A stretch of 12,967 nt of DNA. Origin: Candidatus Jordarchaeia archaeon. Lineage in GTDB: Archaea > Asgardarchaeota > Jordiarchaeia > Jordiarchaeales > Jordiarchaeaceae. The DNA is taken from contig JAHQXB010000124.1 in the NCBI GenBank assembly GCA_029856435.1, forward strand, positions 1-12,967. The letters are read 5' to 3'. Shown one piece after another: positions 1-11,206 of this stretch. Numbering within the stretch: the stretch's first letter is position 1; each line of letters opens with the position of its first letter. The position numbers and the translations under genes are program-made. The notes under the pieces are model-generated. The model was not told where the DNA came from, ran no database searches, and was given only the letters and a program-made list of their open reading frames with translations.

Positions 1-774
1 GGCCCAAAAACACGAGATTTTGCGAATCTATCGCCTGGAATACGCCGGAATCCAAGTGATGGAGCCCTTCTGCACCCTAGAAATTTTCTGGTAGTAGGTG
101 TTGAAAATAGTGAGACATATGTCCGTCAGTTTTTCAACTAGTCTGCGCACCACTTCTGGCTCCGTAAAAAGGCTTTTCACTAGTTTCTGAGTTGCCAATC
201 GTAGCAACTAATACTAGCGTGGTCATATGCCACCATCCCTACGGCAGCTTTTCACTAGTTTCTGAGTTGCCAATCGTAGCAACCAGAGTCCCCTCCATAG
301 TGAAGGTCTGGGATTCCCACCAGAAAATTTCCTCCACAACCTCACAAACCCTGTCAATTAGTTCACACATAAACCTCCACCACTCATTATCCTCCCTGAG
401 AACAGGGTCATAGCCTGACAAATCCTCAAGAAAGGGTTCCGCCCAAGAGGTTCCCTCATCCATAAATGCCAGTTTCCCTCCCAGAAAAGCGGTGAAGGAA
501 TCCGGCCCAATATTAGGCATATAGTAGGGGATTGCGTCACCCATATAGAGAGTGTTTTCAAAGCCGTAATCAACCCAACTCCCCCTTGTACGGAACATAA
601 TCTATGTTTGTCCACTTTTCCTCCACACTTTGGGGAACCGGAAAATCCCAAAAGTTAGGAGTATCTTTGGGAGCAGTTAAATAACTCATAGGTCTCAAGA
701 ATTTCCCTATCCCGAAAAGCATCGAAGTGCTGCTTTATGGTTTCAAAATTAACCTCATCAAGATAAGACCTCAT
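1..774 (-). pseudogene. Frameshifted pseudogene, uroporphyrinogen decarboxylase/methyltransferase (URO-D-like TIM-barrel) superfamily-like protein; runs off the left edge
   Basis: Stitching minus-strand frames from ATG 774 gives MRSYLDEVNFETIKQHFDAFRDREILE/RPMSYLTAPKDTPNFWDFPVPQSVEEKWTNIDYV/..FENTLYMGDAIPYYMPNIGPDSFTAFLGG..TSWAEPF..DNEWWRFM..VVE/GNFLVGIPDLHYGGDS/LVATIG/QKLVKS[insert]LFTEPEVVRRLVEKLTDIC..KGSITWIPAYSR*. At least 5 frame changes are needed. The GDAxP..PNxGPD..AFLG, TSW, xNxWW, VGxxDLHxGxD and PExV pattern matches my recollection of this family. ORFs 239..598 and 358..651 are pieces or shadows of it. Confidence 0.6.
172..283. repeat. Two identical 37-bp direct repeats separated by a 38-bp unique spacer (single repeat-spacer-repeat unit)
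   Basis: GCTTTTCACTAGTTTCTGAGTTGCCAATCGTAGCAAC at 172..208 and 247..283 (37/37 identical; flanking bases differ on both sides). Spacer 209..246 is TAATACTAGCGTGGTCATATGCCACCATCCCTACGGCA. There is no third copy at +/-75 bp and no cas gene in the window. Confidence 0.95.
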
Positions 775-790
775 CCACACAGCTCCCAAA

Positions 791-1520: not shown

Positions 1521-3503
1521 TTATTTTCCTTTGAATTTGGGAAACCTTTTTTCCAAGAACGCGGTGGTGCCCTCTACCATGTCTTCTGTTCCGAAGAGAA
1601 CGCCGAAGACCCCTGACTCTACCATTAGTCCTATGTCCAGAGGCACCTCTGTTCCATAGTTTATGGCGTACTTGGCCATCTTTAAGGCGATTGGTGGACC
1701 TGCGGCGAGCCGTTTTGCAAAGTTTTTGACTTCTTCCTCAAACTTGTCTGGTGGGAATACCCTGTTAATTAGGCCCATTTTCTGAGCCTCTTCCACACTC
1801 ACCCGGTCTCCCAGCATAACCATTTCTTTTGCTCTGCCTAAGCCCACATATTTGGAAAGCCTCTGGGTTCCGCCTGCTCCTGGTATTATTCCCAAGAGTA
1901 TTTCGGGTTGCCCCACAAATGTTCCTTCCTTTGCGAGTCTAAAGTCGCAGGCCATAGCAATTTCCAGCCCGCCGCCTAGAGCAAAACCATTGAGTGCCGC
2001 TATTATGGGTTTTGGAAACTTCTCCATGCGGGTTGTGACCATTTGCAGCCTTCGGGTAGCCTCAAAACCCAGGTTTGGTGTTCCACCCTTAAATCCTGTA
2101 ATGTCCGCTCCTGCGCAAAAGGCTCTATCGCCAGCGCCGGTAATTATGAGAACCCTCACTTCCTCATCGTCCCACAGTTCGGTTAAGCAGTGGTCTAAGT
2201 CTGCTGTGAGGTCGGCGTTTATGGCATTTAGCCTCTGTGGCCGGTTTAAGATTAGCCACGCAAGTGGAGGCTCTCTCTTGAAGATTGTGGCCTTGTATGT
2301 GTATCCCGCACCTGCATAGTCGTAGAAGCCTTTTCCCGCCTTAACGCCAGTATGTCCTTTATTTACCATTTCGGTCAGTAGGGGGTCTACCTTGTAGTAG
2401 TCTCCATACTTGGCTTCCTTTTCCTTTAGAATGGTGACTATGCGGTCGATTCCCCACTCGTCAGCCAACTCGCAGAGACCCTTGGGATAGCCCAGTCCCA
2501 GCTTGACTCCCATATCTATGTCCTGGGGGTCTGCAACGTCGTTTCTAATAAGCCACGCTGCAGCGTTAACTACGGGGGCGAAGAGTGGTACTGGGTCAAA
2601 CTTTTCTCCCACACCAGCTGGTATTGATGGGCGGCCCTTGCTCCAGTCGTAGAATCCTTTCCCAGACTTCCATCCATACTCTCCTTTACTGGCTTTTTCC
2701 ACGAAGAGTTTCTGGGGTCCAGGAGCCATGGGGTCTCTCTTCTTTGTCTCCTCGGAAGCCTTAACTATGGTGTCTATGCCGCTGTAGTCCGCCACTAGGA
2801 AGACGCCCATTGGTAGCCCAACCTTGTAGGCTAGGGCGGAGTCTATTTCTTCCACTGTGGCTTCTCCCCGCTCCACGGTTCTTGCGGCTTCCGCAAGCAG
2901 TGGTCCCAGGAGTCTGTTCACTATGAATCCTGGAACATCCTTTCTGCACACGACCACCATTTTGCCCATTTTCTTTGCCATTTCCACTGTGGTTTGGGTG
3001 GTTTCATCATCAGTCTTTTCTCCCCGAATTATCTCCACCAGTGGCATAAGTGGCGGGGGATTGAAGAAGTGCATTCCTATAACTTTCTCGGGTCGCTTGG
3101 TTGCACCAGCTATTTCCGATATGGGAAGCGTGCTAGTGTTAGTTGCAAGTATGGCGTGTTTAGGCGTCTTCTCATCTAGTTCTTTAAAGGTCTTTTTCTT
3201 GAGGTCCATAACTTCTGGTATGGCTTCAATTACAAAGTCTGCGCCTTTAACGGCCTCATCAAAGTCCACAACGCCATGTAATCTTTTCCAGCTCTGATCC
3301 ATCATTTCTTGGGTGATTCTCTTTTTTTCGGCGAATTTTTCTAGGCTCTTCTTGATCATGCTCATTCCTTTGTCGACGAGCTCCTGGTTTATGTCTCTCA
3401 GGTAAGTCTCAAAGCCGGCTAGGGCTGCGAGTTCCGCGATTCCGTGACCCATAACTCCGGCGCCCAACACGGCTACCTTCTTAATCTCATCTATTTTGAC
3501 CAA
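1521..3503 (-). CDS. Bifunctional 3-hydroxyacyl-CoA dehydrogenase / enoyl-CoA hydratase, archaeal HAD-ECH domain order, 660 aa
   Basis: Rossmann motif VLGAGVMGHGIA; ATNTSTL; catalytic GMHFFNP..LVE; PGFIVNR; two HAD C-terminal repeats (GEYGWKSGKGFYDW, GHTGVKAGKGFYDY); crotonase domain LNRPQRLNA, AFCAGAD, GGGLE, GQPE, IPGAGGTQRL. TTG start with GGGGAG RBS. Confidence 0.95.
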   Translation of the reverse strand: MVKIDEIKKVAVLGAGVMGHGIAELAALAGFETYLRDINQELVDKGMSMIKKSLEKFAEKKRITQEMMDQSWKRLHGVVDFDEAVKGADFVIEAIPEVMDLKKKTFKELDEKTPKHAILATNTSTLPISEIAGATKRPEKVIGMHFFNPPPLMPLVEIIRGEKTDDETTQTTVEMAKKMGKMVVVCRKDVPGFIVNRLLGPLLAEAARTVERGEATVEEIDSALAYKVGLPMGVFLVADYSGIDTIVKASEETKKRDPMAPGPQKLFVEKASKGEYGWKSGKGFYDWSKGRPSIPAGVGEKFDPVPLFAPVVNAAAWLIRNDVADPQDIDMGVKLGLGYPKGLCELADEWGIDRIVTILKEKEAKYGDYYKVDPLLTEMVNKGHTGVKAGKGFYDYAGAGYTYKATIFKREPPLAWLILNRPQRLNAINADLTADLDHCLTELWDDEEVRVLIITGAGDRAFCAGADITGFKGGTPNLGFEATRRLQMVTTRMEKFPKPIIAALNGFALGGGLEIAMACDFRLAKEGTFVGQPEILLGIIPGAGGTQRLSKYVGLGRAKEMVMLGDRVSVEEAQKMGLINRVFPPDKFEEEVKNFAKRLAAGPPIALKMAKYAINYGTEVPLDIGLMVESGVFGVLFGTEDMVEGTTAFLEKRFPKFKGK

Positions 3504-3775: not shown

Positions 3776-5647
3776 CTAGATTTTTTCCAGAAATTTTTCT
3801 ATTTCTTCTTCTGCGTTATCTGCTCTGATGTATATTGGTACGTTTGCTAGTCCTGTGGCGATGTAGCTTGAGAGGAGCCAGTCTCCGGGCGTGAACTCCA
3901 AGGTTTTTTCCAGAATGTTTTTGTCTATCATGAAGGTGTTGCTGATTAGTCCTCGGTCGTATGGTCGGGGTAGGGTGCTTACAAAGTAGGTGTGTAGTTG
4001 TTGGAGGGCGCTGGTGTTTAGGTGGGCTATTCTTTGTGTGGCTATGCACCCTCCTAAGCCGTATTTTCTTCCCTGTCGTAGTAGTCTTTCGACTTCTTGG
4101 GAGCATTGTCGGTCTATTCCGGATACGTTTGCGGGGTTTGCTACGAATTCCTGTGCTTCGTCCCACACGAAGAGGGTGTATGGTTTTACTTTGAATTCTC
4201 TTTTTCTTTGGGCCAGGATGCTTTGGGTGAGGTCTATGACTACTTGTTTTATGGTTTGAGGGTCGCTTATAGTTATGCTGATGAGTCGTGTTTCTCCCTC
4301 TATTAGTTCTTGTATGGCTTCTGTGGTTAGTCCACCGCTGGTGTCGGTTTCTGTTTCGTGGAAGTAACGTGTCATGCGTTGTCTGGTTTCGAACCAGCCG
4401 TATAGTCCGCTTTTTTCGTGGATTTTGTAGGATGTGACTATGGTTGGTGCCGCATTTACCAGCTTGGTTACAAATTCTCGGTCTATTTCGTCGGTTTCAA
4501 TGTATCCTTTTTCAGACATGTATTTTGCGGTTAGTATTTCTACTTCGTTTAAGGCTTCCACATAGTTCAGTCTCCCCTGGTTTTCTGACTTTAGGAGGGC
4601 TACACTGTCCAGAAATTCCTTGAAGGTGGGGATTCTCAAAAATTCTTGCACATAGTGGGTGACCCTGTTTTGGGAAAATATTTTTTCCATTCCTTTAATT
4701 ACTCGAGGATCGTCTTCGAACAGTTTGGGTTTAACAATTGAGTTGTAGAATTCTCTCGCATTTTCAGCTTTGTGCTCGAGAATAATTTTTGAGGGTATTC
4801 TCTTGTCTGCGAACAAGTCCATTAAAAGGAAGGGGTACTCGCAGGATATGTCAAAAATCACCACTTTAGTGTCCGGGGTGTGTATAAGAAGCCTTCTCAA
4901 AATATTGGAGAGCATGTTGCTCTTACCCCCACCCGTGAAGGCAAAGATGCCGAAGTGGTACCTCACCAAGGAGTCATAGTCGACATATATGGGAATATTT
5001 TCGGCTGAAGCCTCAAACATTTTAATAGTTCCAAGGCGGGGATCCTTCCACGGATTACTGCTTGTTTCCTCAGAACTGAAACCTAGCTTCTCTAACACTT
5101 TGCGGTTGTACATGTCTTTAATCATTTCCTTGTTGAGGATGTAGACCCTCTCTCCAACAACGGGGTAGGAGAAGCCCCGCTCGTAACCAAATACGTGGTT
5201 CTCACCCGTCACCAAGTCATAGTTTATGGGGATTGCGGATATCTGAATAATCATTGTGGACTTGTCGCTGGTCTCCCAGTCGCCAACTGATTGCTCAATG
5301 ACTTCAAACTGCAGAGGGTAATACTGGTAGTCCTTTAAGCCCCTCAGGCCGAAATGTTCGGGCCAGAAACGCAGAATCTCCATTAGTGTGTATCTTTTTT
5401 TATCCGCCTCTTTGGTTCTGAAGTTCCTCACAGCCAGAAGCATTCCCGAGTCAATGAGCCTCATGAGGTCTCGGTCATACTCCGCAAGAACCCTGCAAGT
5501 GTAGGGTGAAGAAGTTCCAAATTCTTCGCTGGAGGTTTCACTGGTTGCAATAACTCTTCCCAGTCGGGCCCTGAATTTTCCACCAAAATCGGTAAAGTAA
5601 ATTTTAAGCTCCTCTTCTAAGCCGCTCAAACTCACCCCTCCGTTCAC
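3776..5647 (-). CDS. herA: HerA-like (FtsK-HerA superfamily, DUF87) ATPase/translocase, up to 623 aa; exact start uncertain
   Basis: Walker A GIFAFTGGGKSN; Walker B FVWDEAQEF; arginine-finger/Q motif RQGRKYGLGGCIATQR; N-terminal beta-rich HAS-barrel-like region. It overlaps the 3' end of the nurA-like gene; the true start may be a downstream GTG/TTG near 5635-5629. Confidence 0.9.
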   Translation of the reverse strand: MNGGVSLSGLEEELKIYFTDFGGKFRARLGRVIATSETSSEEFGTSSPYTCRVLAEYDRDLMRLIDSGMLLAVRNFRTKEADKKRYTLMEILRFWPEHFGLRGLKDYQYYPLQFEVIEQSVGDWETSDKSTMIIQISAIPINYDLVTGENHVFGYERGFSYPVVGERVYILNKEMIKDMYNRKVLEKLGFSSEETSSNPWKDPRLGTIKMFEASAENIPIYVDYDSLVRYHFGIFAFTGGGKSNMLSNILRRLLIHTPDTKVVIFDISCEYPFLLMDLFADKRIPSKIILEHKAENAREFYNSIVKPKLFEDDPRVIKGMEKIFSQNRVTHYVQEFLRIPTFKEFLDSVALLKSENQGRLNYVEALNEVEILTAKYMSEKGYIETDEIDREFVTKLVNAAPTIVTSYKIHEKSGLYGWFETRQRMTRYFHETETDTSGGLTTEAIQELIEGETRLISITISDPQTIKQVVIDLTQSILAQRKREFKVKPYTLFVWDEAQEFVANPANVSGIDRQCSQEVERLLRQGRKYGLGGCIATQRIAHLNTSALQQLHTYFVSTLPRPYDRGLISNTFMIDKNILEKTLEFTPGDWLLSSYIATGLANVPIYIRADNAEEEIEKFLEKI

Positions 5648-7520
5648 GGAAGCTGGTCATATAGTAAACAAACTTCTTTAATTCTTTATTTGTCATAATC
5701 CAATCCTTCGTGGTGTCAATAAGATTCTTAAACAGGCTGTAGTTCCACTTGGCCACATTATCCGCAATAAAGAGCGGTTTATTGTGCCCGAAAATTTCTG
5801 GAATAGTGGAACTGGTGGTGGCCGCCAGCGTCACCAGGATGAGGTTCTGAAGCTCATTTCTGATTTTCTCATTTTTAAGTATAAAGACATTTACGGGTTC
5901 TTCTCCCACATAAATTTGGTGGAAACGCTCAATATTCTCCTCCCTCATATCATACTCCGCGTAGGCAAGACGGTCTATGAGCAAAACATTGCTCCTCACC
6001 TTAGGGTCATGCTCCGCCGCCTGAAGTTGAACATAGGTTTTAAGAAACAACCTTTCCATAGTAATCTTATTCTTCCTTGCGCCCCTCACATATCTGGGGC
6101 CCTTATCTAGATCCGGAACAATGGTGGTGAATGCCGAGTCGTACTCAATCAAACTCCAAGGAGGATGGAGCGTATCACAACAGTTAAATGAGTAGTGTTG
6201 CAGAAGCATACGGTCAGTGTTGGGAAGATTTGAAAACAGTTCAGGCGGAACCACACAGCCAAAAATGTTACAGTTGGAGCATACTGGAACGAAGTGGTTT
6301 TTAAAATCGCTGGCTGCAGTATCCTTGGTTATTCCCAAAAGGAGAACCTTGCGTTTCCAGCACTCCTCAATGAGCATATAGAAGCAGAAAAGGGTAAGAA
6401 AAGCAATATCCAAAGTGGACAAGTACTGGGATGAGCCGTCCTCACGCTCAATAATCATCCTAATTCCCGAAGCCGACCCCTCCATCTCCTCCCTAAAAAT
6501 GTGCTCACCCAAAGTTCTAACCAGTTTTGAAATCCTATCCCAAGATTTTCTGTAACGGGGGTTGAGGAGATACTTGGAGTGGCTCTTAAGTACTACTTCT
6601 TCTCGAACCAAACTGTTAAGGTAGCGGCCAACTCTCTCCTCTCGAAGCGCATCCTTAATTTCCAACTCCTCGCAAATTTGTTTCAGGGTTAGTGGGGAAT
6701 CCTTCCTCTCCAAGAGGAGAATGAGGCTGTGCCTCAAAAAGTCTCCCCTAGCGGGCGGAAGCATTAATTCGGGATTCGAGACATAGTAGCGACCAATAAA
6801 TAGATCATTCTTATCTATGGGTTCGCCGTCAACCTTGAATCCCAGAATGGCACACTTTTTATCCCAGTAGGTTTTCTTTGAGGTTTCCTTGGCGATGGCC
6901 CGCTGGGTGCCCGAGAGGGAGCGGTCCATGAAAAGAATTCTTACTGGATCATTGGGGTCAGTCACCAGAAGGTAGGCCAGATAGTATTCGGCAAAGGTCA
7001 TAATCCAGTTCGCAATCTGAGAATTATCCGCGATTTCCTGCTCAGATAGGGGCTGAGTTAACAAACCCTCTGGGTCGTCTCCCTCGCTGAAAAAGGTCTG
7101 GTCAATTTCGGGAACCTCATTAATATAAACGGGAACGCAGCTGGAAATTCCCCTTCCCTCCTCTATATGCTTAGTGTAGTAATCCACAGTGGGTCTGGAA
7201 TCTTTATGGAACTGAATTTCGCCACTTGCAGCATAGGCACCGCCAAAAAAGAGGATAAAGTCAAAAAGTCTCTTTGAATACTCAGTTCCATCCACAGCCG
7301 CAAACCTAACACGATCAGACCCAAAAAAGTCAACCGCGGTACGGTAAGCCCTTTCAAAGTCTAAACCAGTAACCAAAAGTTTAGAGATAAAAGTGTTTAA
7401 CTCGTCAATTTGGGAGAAGCGATTCTTGTAATCCGTAAGCTGCCTCTCAACACCCTTCAACAAAATGTTGCTTATCCTACTAATCTGAGAACTCAGGAAG
7501 GATCTTCCCACTACAATCAC
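5604..7520 (-). CDS. nurA: NurA-like 5'-3' nuclease (RNase H fold), enlarged to 638 aa with an internal winged-helix-like insertion
   Basis: NurA motifs FAAVDGT (D77), LFMDRSL, LLGITKDT and C-terminal GHNKPLFIADNVAK; directly upstream of and overlapping herA. Inserted segment LLERKDSPLTLKQICEEL..RYLNSLVREEVVLKSHSKYLLNP looks like a wHTH. Confidence 0.8.
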   Translation of the reverse strand: MIVVGRSFLSSQISRISNILLKGVERQLTDYKNRFSQIDELNTFISKLLVTGLDFERAYRTAVDFFGSDRVRFAAVDGTEYSKRLFDFILFFGGAYAASGEIQFHKDSRPTVDYYTKHIEEGRGISSCVPVYINEVPEIDQTFFSEGDDPEGLLTQPLSEQEIADNSQIANWIMTFAEYYLAYLLVTDPNDPVRILFMDRSLSGTQRAIAKETSKKTYWDKKCAILGFKVDGEPIDKNDLFIGRYYVSNPELMLPPARGDFLRHSLILLLERKDSPLTLKQICEELEIKDALREERVGRYLNSLVREEVVLKSHSKYLLNPRYRKSWDRISKLVRTLGEHIFREEMEGSASGIRMIIEREDGSSQYLSTLDIAFLTLFCFYMLIEECWKRKVLLLGITKDTAASDFKNHFVPVCSNCNIFGCVVPPELFSNLPNTDRMLLQHYSFNCCDTLHPPWSLIEYDSAFTTIVPDLDKGPRYVRGARKNKITMERLFLKTYVQLQAAEHDPKVRSNVLLIDRLAYAEYDMREENIERFHQIYVGEEPVNVFILKNEKIRNELQNLILVTLAATTSSTIPEIFGHNKPLFIADNVAKWNYSLFKNLIDTTKDWIMTNKELKKFVYYMTSFRERRGEFERLRRGA

Positions 7521-7958: not shown

Positions 7959-8614
7959 TTGTCTTCAATACTTACCAGTAGGTGATGCAGATTTATTCGG
8001 TTCCATCTCCCTAGTAAGGCTCCAAATCGTGAAAGAAGCCCTATAAACACCCCCTTTTTGAGGCGAAACCGAACAATTCTACATCACCCTTACCAGTAAA
8101 GGAATAGCCATATTTCTAGTAGCACTATTGGCAGGAGTTGGTGTGGGCACCTTCATCATTGCTCCAGTTGTGAACAGTAGCCAATAGCAGCAACAGAACC
8201 TAATTTTGGCTTATATTTTTGGTCAAGCGTCCGGCTCACTATACATTCCCGGTTCAACAGCGGTGCTACCGATAACAACTGAGATGGCTCCTGCCTTCAC
8301 AGCCCGGAATCCATTCATCACTATCCAAGCAGCGGGAGGAGGCTCAGGTGCAGGATACAGTGCAATAATTAAACCAGCAAACAGACATTGCAGCGGCGTG
8401 TAGAGAGCCGAAAAGCTCAGAAATTGCCAGCGCCACCGCAGCTGGTGTAAAACTCATAACATTGATTATTGGCGCAGACACAATAGTTGTAATCTACAAT
8501 TATCCCGCCTTGTCTGAAGGGAACTTAACTAGAGCACAGGTAGGACAGATATTTAATGCCTAGGCGAAAGGAACCGGACACGTTTATTGGGATGATTATG
8601 TACCGGGAGCTCTA
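7959..8614 (+). pseudogene. pstS: Phosphate ABC transporter substrate-binding protein (PstS) pseudogene, 5' portion only
   Basis: RBS GAGGAG then TTG at 7959. Removing 7981..8098 gives in-frame MSSILTSKGIAIFLVALLAGVGVGTFIIAP (signal/anchor helix), then TAG 8185 within a Gln run, then GSTAVLPI..AGGGSGAG, a +1 frameshift at ~8371, QTDIAAACREPKSSE..IGADTIVVIYN..LTRAQVGQIFN, TAG 8561, and truncation at the MITE. ORF 8206..8403 is a fragment of it. Confidence 0.85.
7981..8088. mobile_element. 108-bp MITE (family 1) with imperfect terminal inverted repeats and a 10-bp target-site duplication
   Basis: Left end GGTGATGCAGATTTATTCGGTT versus reverse complement of right end GGTGATGTAGAATTGTTCGGTT (19/22). 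Flanked by perfect CTTACCAGTA at 7971..7980 and 8089..8098. Excision restores the pstS reading frame. Confidence 0.88.
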
Positions 8615-8744
8615 TAGAGTTTCTCATTAATTTTTTCCTAAACCTATCCTTAACCAAGGTTATTTAAGGCTTCTTTCCCCAAAAAAAGGCGGAAAAAATC
8701 ATGTTCCCTGAAAACGAAAAGGAAAAAATTAATTGGAAAGTCTA
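8615..8744. mobile_element. 130-bp MITE (family 2, copy A), TA-flanked, IS630/Tc1-like
   Basis: TIRs TAGAGTTTCTCATTAATTTTTTCCT versus rc TAGACTTTCCAATTAATTTTTTCCT (22/25); TA on both sides (8613-14, 8745-46); about 85% identical to 10786..10914 (19 differences in 131 columns by manual alignment). The IS630 assignment is inferred from the TA flanks only. Confidence 0.85.
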
Positions 8745-8746
8745 TA

Positions 8747-9163: not shown

Positions 9164-10579
9164 TTAGTGGGTTTTTCTGTTACTTGGTGGTCTAGCGATG
9201 AGTTTCTCTACATCTTCTAAGTCATATGCGGAGTGATTTGTGTTTTGGAGTTGGCTTTTGTCTTGTATCTTTTTGGCTATTAGGATGTAGTGTTTCTTTT
9301 TTGTGGATTCTATTTTTTCTGTTTTTGCTTCTAGCTTCTGTAGGGTTGATTCTGCCTCTTTTTGTGAGAGGCTTGCCCAGCTAATTTCTGCAGTGATTAG
9401 TTGGTTGTTGCTGGCTACTATGTCTATTTCTGTTTCTTTATGCCACCATCTGCCCACTTCTAGGAGCGGTTCTCTGATGAGTTTCCTGAGAATGTATTTC
9501 CTACAAATGTTTTCGAAGGTTTCTCCAAGGTAGTTGTTAAACTCTTTTTTGAATTGGGACACGAATGATTCTAGGTTTCCGCTTTCAAGAATTCCCCTGT
9601 TGGGATATACGAAGCGGAACCAGAACCGGAAGTAGTTGTCTGTTATGGTGTATCTTCCTTTTTTTATTCTTGTTTTAGCTTTTATGCTGGAGAATGTGGG
9701 TAGTTCTCTTTCTACTATATTTAGACTTTGGAGAACTGACAGGTATTTGGAAACTAGGCTTTTATCCAGCTCCGTTTCGTTCACTATTTCACCGAAGGAT
9801 TCCTTTCCTGCTGCTATGGCTCTCAGGATAGTGAAGTAGTTTGCGGGTTTCCTCAACTCTTGCTTCAGGAGAATTTCGGCCTCCTCGTAAAGATAGCCTC
9901 CCTTGGAAAAAATGTTCTCAACAAGGTTTTCTTCAAATGTTTTTCTTGAATCAAAGCTTGCAAGGTAGCTCGGCACACCTCCAACCACACTATAAACCTT
10001 AACCAGATCCTCAGTGCTATAATTCGGAAAGAAGCCACCCACACTGAAGAAGTCCATTTCACGCAGCATCCATTGACCGGTTCTCCTACCGTAAAGGGGA
10101 CTCCTATATCCCAGAACCTCTGTTTCCATCATTCCAATGCTTGAACCACAAAGAACCAGAAACACATCCCTACGCTTTGACAGAAAGGCATCCCACAATC
10201 TCTGGAATATGGAAACCACAGGTTTATACCCCTCAATGAGAACTGGAAACTCGTCAATTATCAAAACAATCCTCTCAGACCCCTTACGCTGGAAAAACTC
10301 TTTGAACAGCGTCTCAAAGTCTCTTATATCCGCAAGCCTGAAGAGTTCGTCCCCCAAGTAGTCAGCAAAAAGCATTTTTAAATCTCTAACAGAATCCCAA
10401 GACGGCTTCTCAGTGGCCAAAAAATATATGTGAGGCTTGTTTTGAGCGAAACGCAAAAGAAGAGCTGTTTTTCCTATTCTCCTCCTCCCATAAATCACAA
10501 GGAGCTCCGGCTCACCTGAAGCATATCTCTCCTCCAGAAACTTTAACTCTCTCTCCCTATCAACAAAAAGTTGAAACAT
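9164..10579 (-). CDS. Archaeal P-loop ATPase (ATPase_2-type) with central wHTH and C-terminal DUF234 restriction-endonuclease-like domain, about 471 aa
   Basis: FVDRERE; Walker A YGRRRIGKT; Walker B LIIDEF; LCGSS; SPLYGRRT; VGGVPSYL; DNYFRFWFRFV; GRWW...EIDIVA. ATG 10579 is preferred over TTG 10594 because it sits 30 nt from the TATA box, consistent with a leaderless mRNA. Confidence 0.9.
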   Translation of the reverse strand: MFQLFVDRERELKFLEERYASGEPELLVIYGRRRIGKTALLLRFAQNKPHIYFLATEKPSWDSVRDLKMLFADYLGDELFRLADIRDFETLFKEFFQRKGSERIVLIIDEFPVLIEGYKPVVSIFQRLWDAFLSKRRDVFLVLCGSSIGMMETEVLGYRSPLYGRRTGQWMLREMDFFSVGGFFPNYSTEDLVKVYSVVGGVPSYLASFDSRKTFEENLVENIFSKGGYLYEEAEILLKQELRKPANYFTILRAIAAGKESFGEIVNETELDKSLVSKYLSVLQSLNIVERELPTFSSIKAKTRIKKGRYTITDNYFRFWFRFVYPNRGILESGNLESFVSQFKKEFNNYLGETFENICRKYILRKLIREPLLEVGRWWHKETEIDIVASNNQLITAEISWASLSQKEAESTLQKLEAKTEKIESTKKKHYILIAKKIQDKSQLQNTNHSAYDLEDVEKLIARPPSNRKTH

Positions 10580-10602
10580 GAGTATAATACTCAAGTTTCA
10601 AC
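10570..10602. promoter_or_regulatory. 33-bp near-perfect palindrome over the ATPase start codon and predicted TSS (candidate operator)
   Basis: GTTGAAACATGAGTAT-A-ATACTCAAGTTTCAAC: 16-bp arms, 15/16 complementary, 1-nt centre. Confidence 0.65.
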
Positions 10603-10616: not shown

Positions 10617-10785
10617 AAAATTAAACTAATGCCCCATAGTAATTCGGATAAATTTTTATCATTTCTATTTAGATTTGGCTCAAACCGGGGGTTAAATTCT
10701 TCCCCTTTTTTTGGAAAAGGGGTACGAAAAGGACTGCCCAAATAGGGAAAGCGAAGAAAACGCCAAAAAATTTCATGAACCACCA

Positions 10786-10914
10786 TAGATTTTCTCACTA
10801 ATTTTTTCCTAAACCTCACCTTAACCCGGGGTTATTTAAAGCCTCTTTCCCCAAAAAAAGACGAAAAACCATACTTTCTGAAAGCGAAAAGGAAAAAATT
10901 AAATGGAAAGTCTA
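10786..10914. mobile_element. 129-bp MITE (family 2, copy B), same orientation as copy A
   Basis: TIRs TAGATTTTCTCACTAATTTTTTCCT versus rc TAGACTTTCCATTTAATTTTTTCCT (20/25). The right flank is TA (10915-16, the start of a TnpB Tyr codon) and the left flank is CA. About 85% identical to copy A. Confidence 0.85.
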
Positions 10915-11206
10915 TATACATCCCAAACCTTTCCGAGATGTGGATACATCGGTAAAGAAAACTGGGAGGGCTACACCTATTTCAAATGTATCAAATGCGG
11001 ATACGAAGCAGACAGAGACCGTGTGGCAAGCCTTAACATCGCCCTCAGGGCGGCTCCCAAAGTAGACATCCCCAAACGCTATTTCTGGAGCCAGACTCCT
11101 GAGGAAGGAGCCTCCGTCAGCAGGCTCATCTTGAAGGATGAAGGGTGCAGATGGCATCAAACCACTCAGAGCTTCAAGCCCAAGGATTTATCCGCGGGTA
11201 GCTGAC
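10915..11206 (+). pseudogene. tnpB: TnpB (IS200/IS605/IS607 OrfB) C-terminal remnant: zinc ribbon, RuvC-III and element right end
   Basis: YTSQT(F)PRCG..FKCIKCGYEADRDRVASLNIALR matches the TnpB YTSxxCxxCG..FxCxxCG..DRDxNAAxNI motif, with the first Cys changed to Phe. The N-terminal ~300 aa are missing, and the ATG of ORF 10903 comes from the MITE. Confidence 0.85.
11108..11206 (+). ncRNA. Putative TnpB omega-RNA (reRNA) scaffold core; guide would start at about 11207
   Basis: Hairpin GAGCCT(11108-13)/AGGCTC(11122-27) whose loop GTCAGC(11116-21) is the exact reverse complement of terminal GCTGAC(11201-06), i.e. a pseudoknot. Subterminal hairpin CCCaaGGA-TTTA-TCCgcGGG at 11179..11198. The 5' boundary is unknown. 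Confidence 0.62.

Follow-up and report, generated by a model that had tools for sequence, protein, structure and literature searches.

A repeat-sized target duplication around a spacer-sized insert in an archaeal pseudogene: a probable scar of CRISPR spacer integration outside an array

Near the start of a 12,967-nt contig from a Candidatus Jordarchaeia archaeon (JAHQXB010000124.1), two identical copies of a 37-nt piece of coding sequence enclose 38 nt of unrelated DNA, and this raises the question of how a dead gene came to carry a structure with the dimensions of a CRISPR (short palindromic repeats that are clustered and regularly interspaced) repeat-spacer-repeat unit. An earlier note, made from the sequence alone, had attributed the unit to Cas1-Cas2. 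We compared the genome under study (G000) with five genomes of the same genus (the congeners G001-G005); the window is the entire contig C63 of G000 with all its 12,967 nt. G000 is a metagenome bin of 3.54 Mb in 181 contigs, with 42% G+C, 97.8% completeness and 5.7% contamination. The comparison leads us to regard the C63 unit as a probable scar of ectopic, that is off-array, full-site CRISPR spacer integration by Cas1-Cas2.

The exact 37-mer GCTTTTCACTAGTTTCTGAGTTGCCAATCGTAGCAAC was present twice in C63, and the unit consists of the following parts.

172..208, minus strand: copy 1 of the 37-nt target duplication; belongs to the coding sequence of the dead gene, holds a +1 frameshift base at 192/193 and reads GTTGC...CTCAGAAAC...TGAAAAGC on the minus strand
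209..246, no strand assigned: 38-nt spacer-sized insert, single-copy in the genome and unlike the flanks and the orthologous gene
247..283, minus strand: copy 2 of the duplicated 37-nt target, with the same sequence as copy 1

The bases bordering the two copies are unlike each other (171 g versus 246 a, and 209 t versus 284 c), which fixes the length of the duplication at exactly 37 nt and that of the insert at exactly 38 nt; the description of two identical 37-mers around an unrelated 38-mer was thus accurate. Outside the unit neither the 37-mer nor the 38-mer had a second copy in the 3.54-Mb genome, and the best other matches of 13-14 nt were at chance level. Terminal inverted repeats (TIRs) were looked for in the insert and not found; only an internal near-palindrome, GTGGTCATATGCCAC, was present.

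Several ordinary origins were considered for this unit and rejected. Tandem duplication by slippage was ruled out, since the 38-mer resembles neither flank nor the orthologous genes, and the earlier note had been right to dismiss a simple tandem duplication, as the 38-mer matched neither adjacent DNA nor the intact ortholog. It had also held that the insert is not a miniature inverted-repeat transposable element (MITE). Indeed, insertion of a MITE or an insertion sequence (IS) with target-site duplication was ruled out by the single-copy state of the insert and its lack of TIRs. A templated origin from nearby or other DNA of the same genome was excluded as well (best G000 matches 13 nt), and so was a degenerate CRISPR array, since the ‘repeat’ is conserved coding sequence. 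An archaeal bulge-helix-bulge intron was not supported either: the minimum-energy fold of 150-305 (minus strand) gave hairpins inside each copy and no bulge-helix-bulge across the 75-nt interval. This is a weak test, and the intron reading is further disfavoured because other lesions too have inactivated the host gene.

The polarity of the event was read from the host gene and its relatives. Two features at the left end of the window matter here.

34..775 (ends approximate), minus strand: eroded, 3'-truncated pseudogene with weak URO-D similarity, which received the insertion and whose G003 ortholog is intact
1..39, no strand assigned: end of a multi-copy element with at least 8 copies in G000 (on C90, C174, C134, C84, C57, C32, C12 and others), also found in G003 and G004

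The ortholog in G003 is an intact open reading frame of 370 aa. The earlier label of a URO-D-like gene holds in so far as the similarity is present, but it is weak: the G000 fragment reached 14.5 bits against the URO-D profile, and even the intact G003 ortholog, with 21.5 bits, stayed under the Pfam cut-off of 23.9. Orthologs of the pseudogene were aligned from four congeners (identity 92% in G003, 88% in G001, 87% in G004 and 75% in G002), and all four had a single copy of the target site and no insert. Dropping 75 nt from C63 brought back colinearity with these genomes. Thus, the C63 unit is a lineage-specific 75-nt insertion, made of 38 nt of new sequence and the 37-nt target duplication. 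Both expectations voiced earlier, namely that removal of 75 bp rejoins the gene and that orthologs carry one copy without insert, were confirmed in this alignment.

The insertion struck a gene that was already dead. An extra frame-breaking base occurs in both copies, at 192/193 and 267/268, as the earlier note had observed when it pointed to the same frame break in each; none of the relatives has this base, and the frameshift is therefore older than the duplication. The pseudogene further suffered an insertion of 10 nt at 565-574, deletions of 1 nt at ~331 and of 2 nt at ~694, and the 3' truncation at ~34-39. Homology to the orthologs ends where the multi-copy element begins (~34-39), which identifies this element as the cause of the truncation. 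The 10-nt insertion (CCGTAATCAA) is absent from all four orthologs and does not duplicate neighbouring sequence.

A single intact cas1-cas2-cas4 cluster is present in G000, on contig C51 beside a type I-A effector set. The neighbouring genes encode Cas7/Csa2, Cas5a, Csa5, Cas3', Cas3'' and CsaX and all frames are open, which makes this a type I-A locus; cas1 itself encodes 350 aa and scored 285 bits. The integrase genes, whose absence the earlier note had named as a refutation, are present. All five congeners also have cas1, one copy each, and the G000 Cas1 is 87-96% identical to theirs (94-96% to G003/G001, 87% to G005). The cas locus of the complete G005 genome is ringed by arrays in which the repeat, CTTGCAAAAGAAGTTCCTCAGTAACGAGGATTGAAAG, has 37 nt and the spacers have 35-41 nt (mode 37), and the arrays of G001-G004 belong to the same repeat family, with spacers of 36-39 nt. 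The genus form of the repeat is 37 nt long, CTTGCAAAAAGAGTTCCTCAG[C/A/T]AACGAGGATTGAAAG, starting with CTTGC and ending with GGATTGAAAG. Given orthologous Cas1 in congeners with 37-nt arrays, the native geometry is 37 plus ~37-38 nt, the same as in the C63 unit, and native lengths near 37/38, another check named beforehand, were found in the congeners (37-nt repeat, 35-41-nt spacers).

The 37-nt repeat occurs in all five congeners, more fragmented bins included, yet it is absent from the 97.8%-complete G000 with its intact type I-A genes. The sole array in the G000 assembly takes up the whole of contig C173 (5453 nt), with 81 copies of a 30-nt repeat, in the likely CRISPR RNA sense GTTTTAATCGAACCATAGTGGAATTGAGAC, and spacers of 35-41 nt. 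The native 37-nt repeat begins with CTT on both strands, whereas the 30-nt repeat of C173 begins with GTT and GTC.

The attacked site itself resembles the genus repeat. On the minus strand the duplicated C63 37-mer reads GTTGC TACGATTGGCAA CTCAGAAAC TAGTGAAAAGC, and the G004 variant of the native repeat reads CTTGC AAAAAGAGTTC CTCAGAAAC GAGGATTGAAAG. The two agree in 4 of 5 bases at the 5' end, share the exact 9-mer core, shifted by one base, and have similar 3' ends (TGAAAAGC versus GGATTGAAAG). When likeness to the native repeat was scored by unbiased global alignment, the C63 site came within the highest 1.3% of 37-mers drawn at random from the genome. A motif criterion set post hoc (the internal native 9-mer no more than 2 nt off register, together with at least 4 of the 5 bases of CTTGC at the start) selected 108 of 7.06 million windows, two of which were the two C63 copies. 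Judged by sequence, the C63 target looks like a pseudo-repeat mimicking the 37-nt repeat of the genus.

Similar units were present elsewhere in G000. The genome was scanned for exact direct repeats 40-130 nt apart and then with a mismatch-tolerant scan, and an automated filter was applied against tandem arrays; R denotes the length of the duplication and S that of the insert, in nt.

C63:172, R 37, S 38, exact repeats; the unit under study
C115:7539, R 36, S 38, exact repeats
C68:595, R 33, S 35, exact repeats
C138:25359, R 32, S 36, exact repeats
C90:1357, R 30, S 36, exact repeats
C91:9573, R 30, S 37, exact repeats
C49:9073, R 28, S 37, exact repeats
C100:84, R 40, S 35, repeats 95% identical
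C19:4901, R 28, S 36, repeats 93% identical
C38:11861, R 31, S 37, repeats 94% identical
C123, R 25, S 42, an outlier
C76 (C76:3643), R 25, S 46, an outlier

After the tandem filter, S was 35-38 nt in 7 of the 11 exact two-copy units (binomial 9e-8 against a uniform distribution over 15-105 nt). Together with three slightly diverged units, these seven exact ones make a series of at least ten with S of 35-38 nt and R of 28-40 nt (median R 30.5). The sum R+S ranged over 64-75 without compensation between R and S; a process with a constant total was not seen among the ten units, and the tight S beside a variable R fits such a process poorly. Each insert is single-copy and resembles neither the other inserts nor the native spacers nor any other part of the genome; a derivation of the inserts as copies of native spacers was ruled out, as no match to native spacers was found. 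For six units (C63, C138, C19, C90, C91 and C49) the congeners have an empty site. Orthologous loci for C115, C68 and C100 were sought in the congeners and not found, and the C38 locus of the relative shows complex differences.

The ends of the duplications were then read as the attacked positions, taking the 5' end of the duplication on each strand, which gives 20 ends from the ten units. Starts with [G/C]T were found at 11 of 20 ends (genome frequency 0.115; p 3e-6) and starts with [G/C]TT at 8 (genome frequency 0.039; p 4e-7), and the attacked base was G at 9 of 20 ends (p 0.014). This preference was noticed after the fact; nevertheless, the post hoc 5' [C/G]TT enrichment of the series is strong, and it is like the ends of the native repeat.

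As a control, the first 1.656 Mb of the complete G005 genome were scanned in the same way as G000. Outside true arrays and protein-coding tandem repeats there was one clean unit, at C1:117642-117755, with exact repeats, R 38 and S 38, whose duplicated site holds CGAGATTGTGAAAGG (compare CGAGGATTGAAAG in the native repeat). Such units are much rarer in the scanned part of G005 than in G000. The phenomenon is thus present, with native geometry, in a second, independently assembled genome.

How the scar might have arisen can be outlined from these data. Cas1-Cas2 carrying a processed prespacer of ~38 nt would have attacked both strands of the dead gene at points 37 bp from each other, where the sequence happened to resemble the 37-nt CRISPR repeat of the lineage, and gap repair would then have doubled the 37-bp target around the insert, giving the repeat-spacer-repeat geometry. 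Since the host gene was already dead, the scar was neutral and was kept. We infer, from sequence comparison, both that Cas1-Cas2 was the catalyst at C63 and which integrase acted; the most likely candidate would be the type I-A-associated Cas1-Cas2(-Cas4) of G000 itself. The support for the mechanism of the earlier note, an ectopic acquisition by Cas1-Cas2, is circumstantial and comes from the cas1-cas2 genes, the repeat and spacer lengths of the congeners, the empty sites, the repeat-like target and the series of at least ten units.

A number of observations weigh against off-array integration by Cas1-Cas2. The 37-nt repeat of the genus was sought in the G000 assembly with up to 9 mismatches and was not found. 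Likewise, the 30-nt repeat of C173 was not found in the five congeners, and the 60-nt flank of C173 had no match in the other G000 contigs or in the congeners. With a flank that matches nothing, the membership of C173 in G000 is unproven, and this contig is either a second system of the same cell or mis-binned. Because the 37-nt array is absent and C173 is unplaced, the acting pair of integrase and array had to be deduced from relatives. Moreover, cas1 is present throughout the genus, so that the congeners offer no cas1-free contrast. The spread of R over 28-40 nt is wider than the one-repeat-length spacing of Pyrococcus furiosus in vitro (PMC6698737). Only 3 of 10 units lie near R 37; the other seven scars, with duplications of 28-33 nt, are close to 30, a length in keeping with the C173 repeat should the C173 system belong to the same cell. 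Finally, one border lies 0-3 nt from a MITE terminus in 3 of the 12 units (C138, C68 and the outlier C76). These borders may be due to chance, to an affinity of the integrase for structured DNA or ends, or to a second (e.g. nicking) activity.

The searches for the source of the insert point in the same direction. A 26-nt core of the C63 insert had no exact match in metagenome, viral and genome collections (JGI metagenomes, IMG/VR and GTDB genomes), 400 genomes from the phylum contained no match to the full 38-mer when up to 3 mismatches were allowed, and BLASTN against phage and plasmid records was without a match. The cores of two other inserts likewise had no match among viral contigs. Altogether, neither a protospacer nor a protospacer-adjacent motif was found for the C63 insert in G000, the 400 phylum genomes or the viral, metagenome, GTDB, phage and plasmid collections. 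We infer a foreign origin of the 38-mer, which the earlier note had asserted; it is unproven, the protospacer searches having given no match. Other alleles of the C63 site were looked for in JGI metagenomes with a 36-nt flank, and no match was obtained.

Three rival explanations were weighed. Were the unit the product of a Cas-independent insertion and duplication (a staggered double-strand break with long overhangs that were filled in, captured filler DNA, or an undescribed process adding ~65-75 nt), its CRISPR-like geometry would be a coincidence. Such a process would accommodate an R that varies over 25-40 nt across the series, the empty protospacer searches and the three units exactly at MITE termini, and it would also agree with G005, which has large active arrays yet only one unit in 1.66 Mb. 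It does not account for an S held to 35-38 while R varies and the total of 64-75 is not constant, nor for insert lengths that equal the native spacer distribution. The C63 duplication, moreover, has the native length of 37 nt at a site similar to the native repeat, and the ends in the series show the same [C/G]TT as the native repeat termini. We regard a Cas-independent origin as unlikely. An artefact of assembly or library preparation, in which a chimeric read or a mis-join made the repeat-insert-repeat structure, might be suspected in a fragmented metagenome bin of 181 contigs with 5.7% contamination, all the more as the C63 unit lies 172 nt from the contig end beside a graph branch: positions 1-123 of C63 are the same as the last 123 nt of contig C98, and the two are therefore neighbouring contigs. 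Overlaps of 123 nt are typical of G000 contigs, which implies an assembler k of 124, and the whole C63 unit of 112 nt fits within such a k-mer. The same precise architecture recurs at no fewer than ten unrelated loci with different inserts, one unit lies in the independently assembled complete G005 genome, and no known artefact yields exact target duplications around a fixed 35-38-nt insert. An artefact can accordingly be given very little credence.

Ectopic integration could also have been carried out by an integrase other than that of C51, either a module serving the C173 array, whose cas1 is not in the bin, or a Cas1-Cas2 borne by a virus or plasmid. The R of 28-33 nt in 7 of 10 units is near the 30-nt length of the C173 repeat, the spacers of C173 likewise measure 35-41 nt, the ends starting with GT match the termini of that repeat, and some of the short-R units are weakly similar to it (p 0.04-0.05 each). 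The C63 unit, however, has 37 nt and is more specifically like the 37-nt than the 30-nt repeat; a single cas1 was found in the 97.8%-complete assembly, and C173 could be linked neither to the genome nor to any congener. We find the involvement of such an integrase quite improbable. Integration by the G000 Cas1-Cas2 thus stays the preferred explanation, and it can be extended, with considerable doubt, to a scenario for the whole series. The G000 lineage could have lost its cognate 37-nt arrays and kept the integrase, which, left homeless, would have inserted spacers off-array on ten or more occasions after the congeners had branched off, with a minimal requirement for 5'-[C/G]TT and a spacing allowed to vary over 28-40 bp; the pseudo-repeat unit of C63 would then come nearest to a newborn home array.

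The C63 unit is best regarded as a neutral scar that was left in a pseudogene rather than as a working CRISPR locus. With a canonical array of the genus it has in common the period (37+38 = 75) and the 9-nt core, and the 5' pentamer and the 3' end are similar, but its ‘repeat’ is coding sequence of a conserved gene and it has one spacer only. The native repeat contains a CCTC/GAGG stem just 5' of its ATTGAAAG end; the C63 37-mer lacks this stem, and processing by the native Cas6 would consequently not be expected. On reading the sequence, the native A-rich leader ending in ...ATAACC was not there at C63, where pseudogene coding sequence continues on both sides, and the C63 37-mer is shared with no other array of G000. 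With no leader and no third repeat, the birth of a CRISPR unit or the seed of a new array, as the earlier note had put it, is an over-statement.

Some further repeats were seen in the course of the scan. A MITE of ~135 nt (TIRs TATAGA..TTCTCA.TAATTTTTTCCT) has two copies in the window, at 8605-8746 and 10785-10916, which flank a TnpB-type fragment; other copies lie on C98, 130-280 nt left of the window start, and on C51 at ~6.4 kb, just downstream of cas4. The left border of the C138 unit falls exactly at a further copy, C138:25225-25358. The borders of the C68 and C76 units involve a different MITE of ~103 nt (TIR GATGYAG..TTCGC.CGATT, more than 50 copies), that of C138 the 135-nt one. At C175:4014-4176 an exact 43-nt direct repeat surrounds a unique insert of 77 nt, about double the usual insert length. 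A palindromic short repeat family, …AAAGGATGAAAACCT.AAG.TTTTTCATGGTAAAC…CATACGCTTACGC…, was found as close-set copies on C145, C165, C40, C59, C8 and C82.

The remainder of the window contains protein-coding genes. On the minus strand at 3776-7520 lie overlapping HerA-like (DUF87, 623 aa) and NurA-like (638 aa) genes, adjoined at 1521-3503 by a fused 3-hydroxyacyl-CoA dehydrogenase/enoyl-CoA hydratase; a DUF234/ATPase_2 protein is encoded at 9164-10594. The gene content (HerA, NurA, DUF234 ATPase and type I-A cas) is consistent with an archaeal (Asgard) origin.

G000 provides a clean natural set: no fewer than ten events, each with its own insert, of which six have empty sites in sister genomes. 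From such a set one can deduce how an archaeal integrase associated with type I-A selects its sites, namely which end is fixed and how much play the spacing has. It also indicates that insertion mutations really do arise from the machinery of CRISPR adaptation, and it bears on the way in which new repeat families might originate. The organism is an uncultured archaeon; if it is an Asgard archaeon, genetics is unavailable, and adaptation can be studied mainly through the scars left in genomes.

Among known systems, MITEs, insertion sequences and casposons also produce a direct target duplication around inserted DNA. Unlike these elements, the C63 insert is only 38 nt long, single-copy and without TIRs, and the inserts of the ten units are unrelated. 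Target duplications of known transposable elements are far shorter, about 14-15 bp in casposons. Closer to the C63 unit are the ‘neo-CRISPR’ units that Nivala, Shipman & Church (2018, Nat Microbiol 3:310) reportedly obtained by off-target Cas1-Cas2 integration in Escherichia coli type I-E, with Cas1-Cas2 over-expressed. Natural cases are seldom documented, and a preprint citing Nivala et al. 2018 speaks of natural evidence as only circumstantial and from two other species. The 2018 units reportedly share with C63 a spacer-length insert, a repeat-length duplication, a non-CRISPR site and cas1-cas2 in the genome; in contrast to the engineered E. coli, C63 is natural, belongs to an archaeon with a type I-A locus, has empty sites in relatives, is one of at least ten units and stands in a series with variable R.

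The nearest archaeal parallel comes from Grainy et al. 2019, who used P. furiosus Cas1-Cas2 in vitro on plasmids and obtained off-target full-site integration at sites sharing positions with the repeat (PMC6698737). The attacks fell on opposite strands one repeat length apart, tightly at 30-31 bp, with a preference for G and then C (PMC6698737). C63 and the G000 series resemble these events in the repeat-like non-CRISPR site, paired attacks about one repeat length apart, the preference for G and then C, and the archaeal spacer size of ~37 nt; the spacing of 30-31 bp in vitro differs from that of the in vivo scars, which is 37 bp at C63, the genus-native length, and 28-40 bp in the series (PMC6698737). 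The reaction is thus already known from the laboratory, and C63 is a new natural case of it that is unusually well supported.

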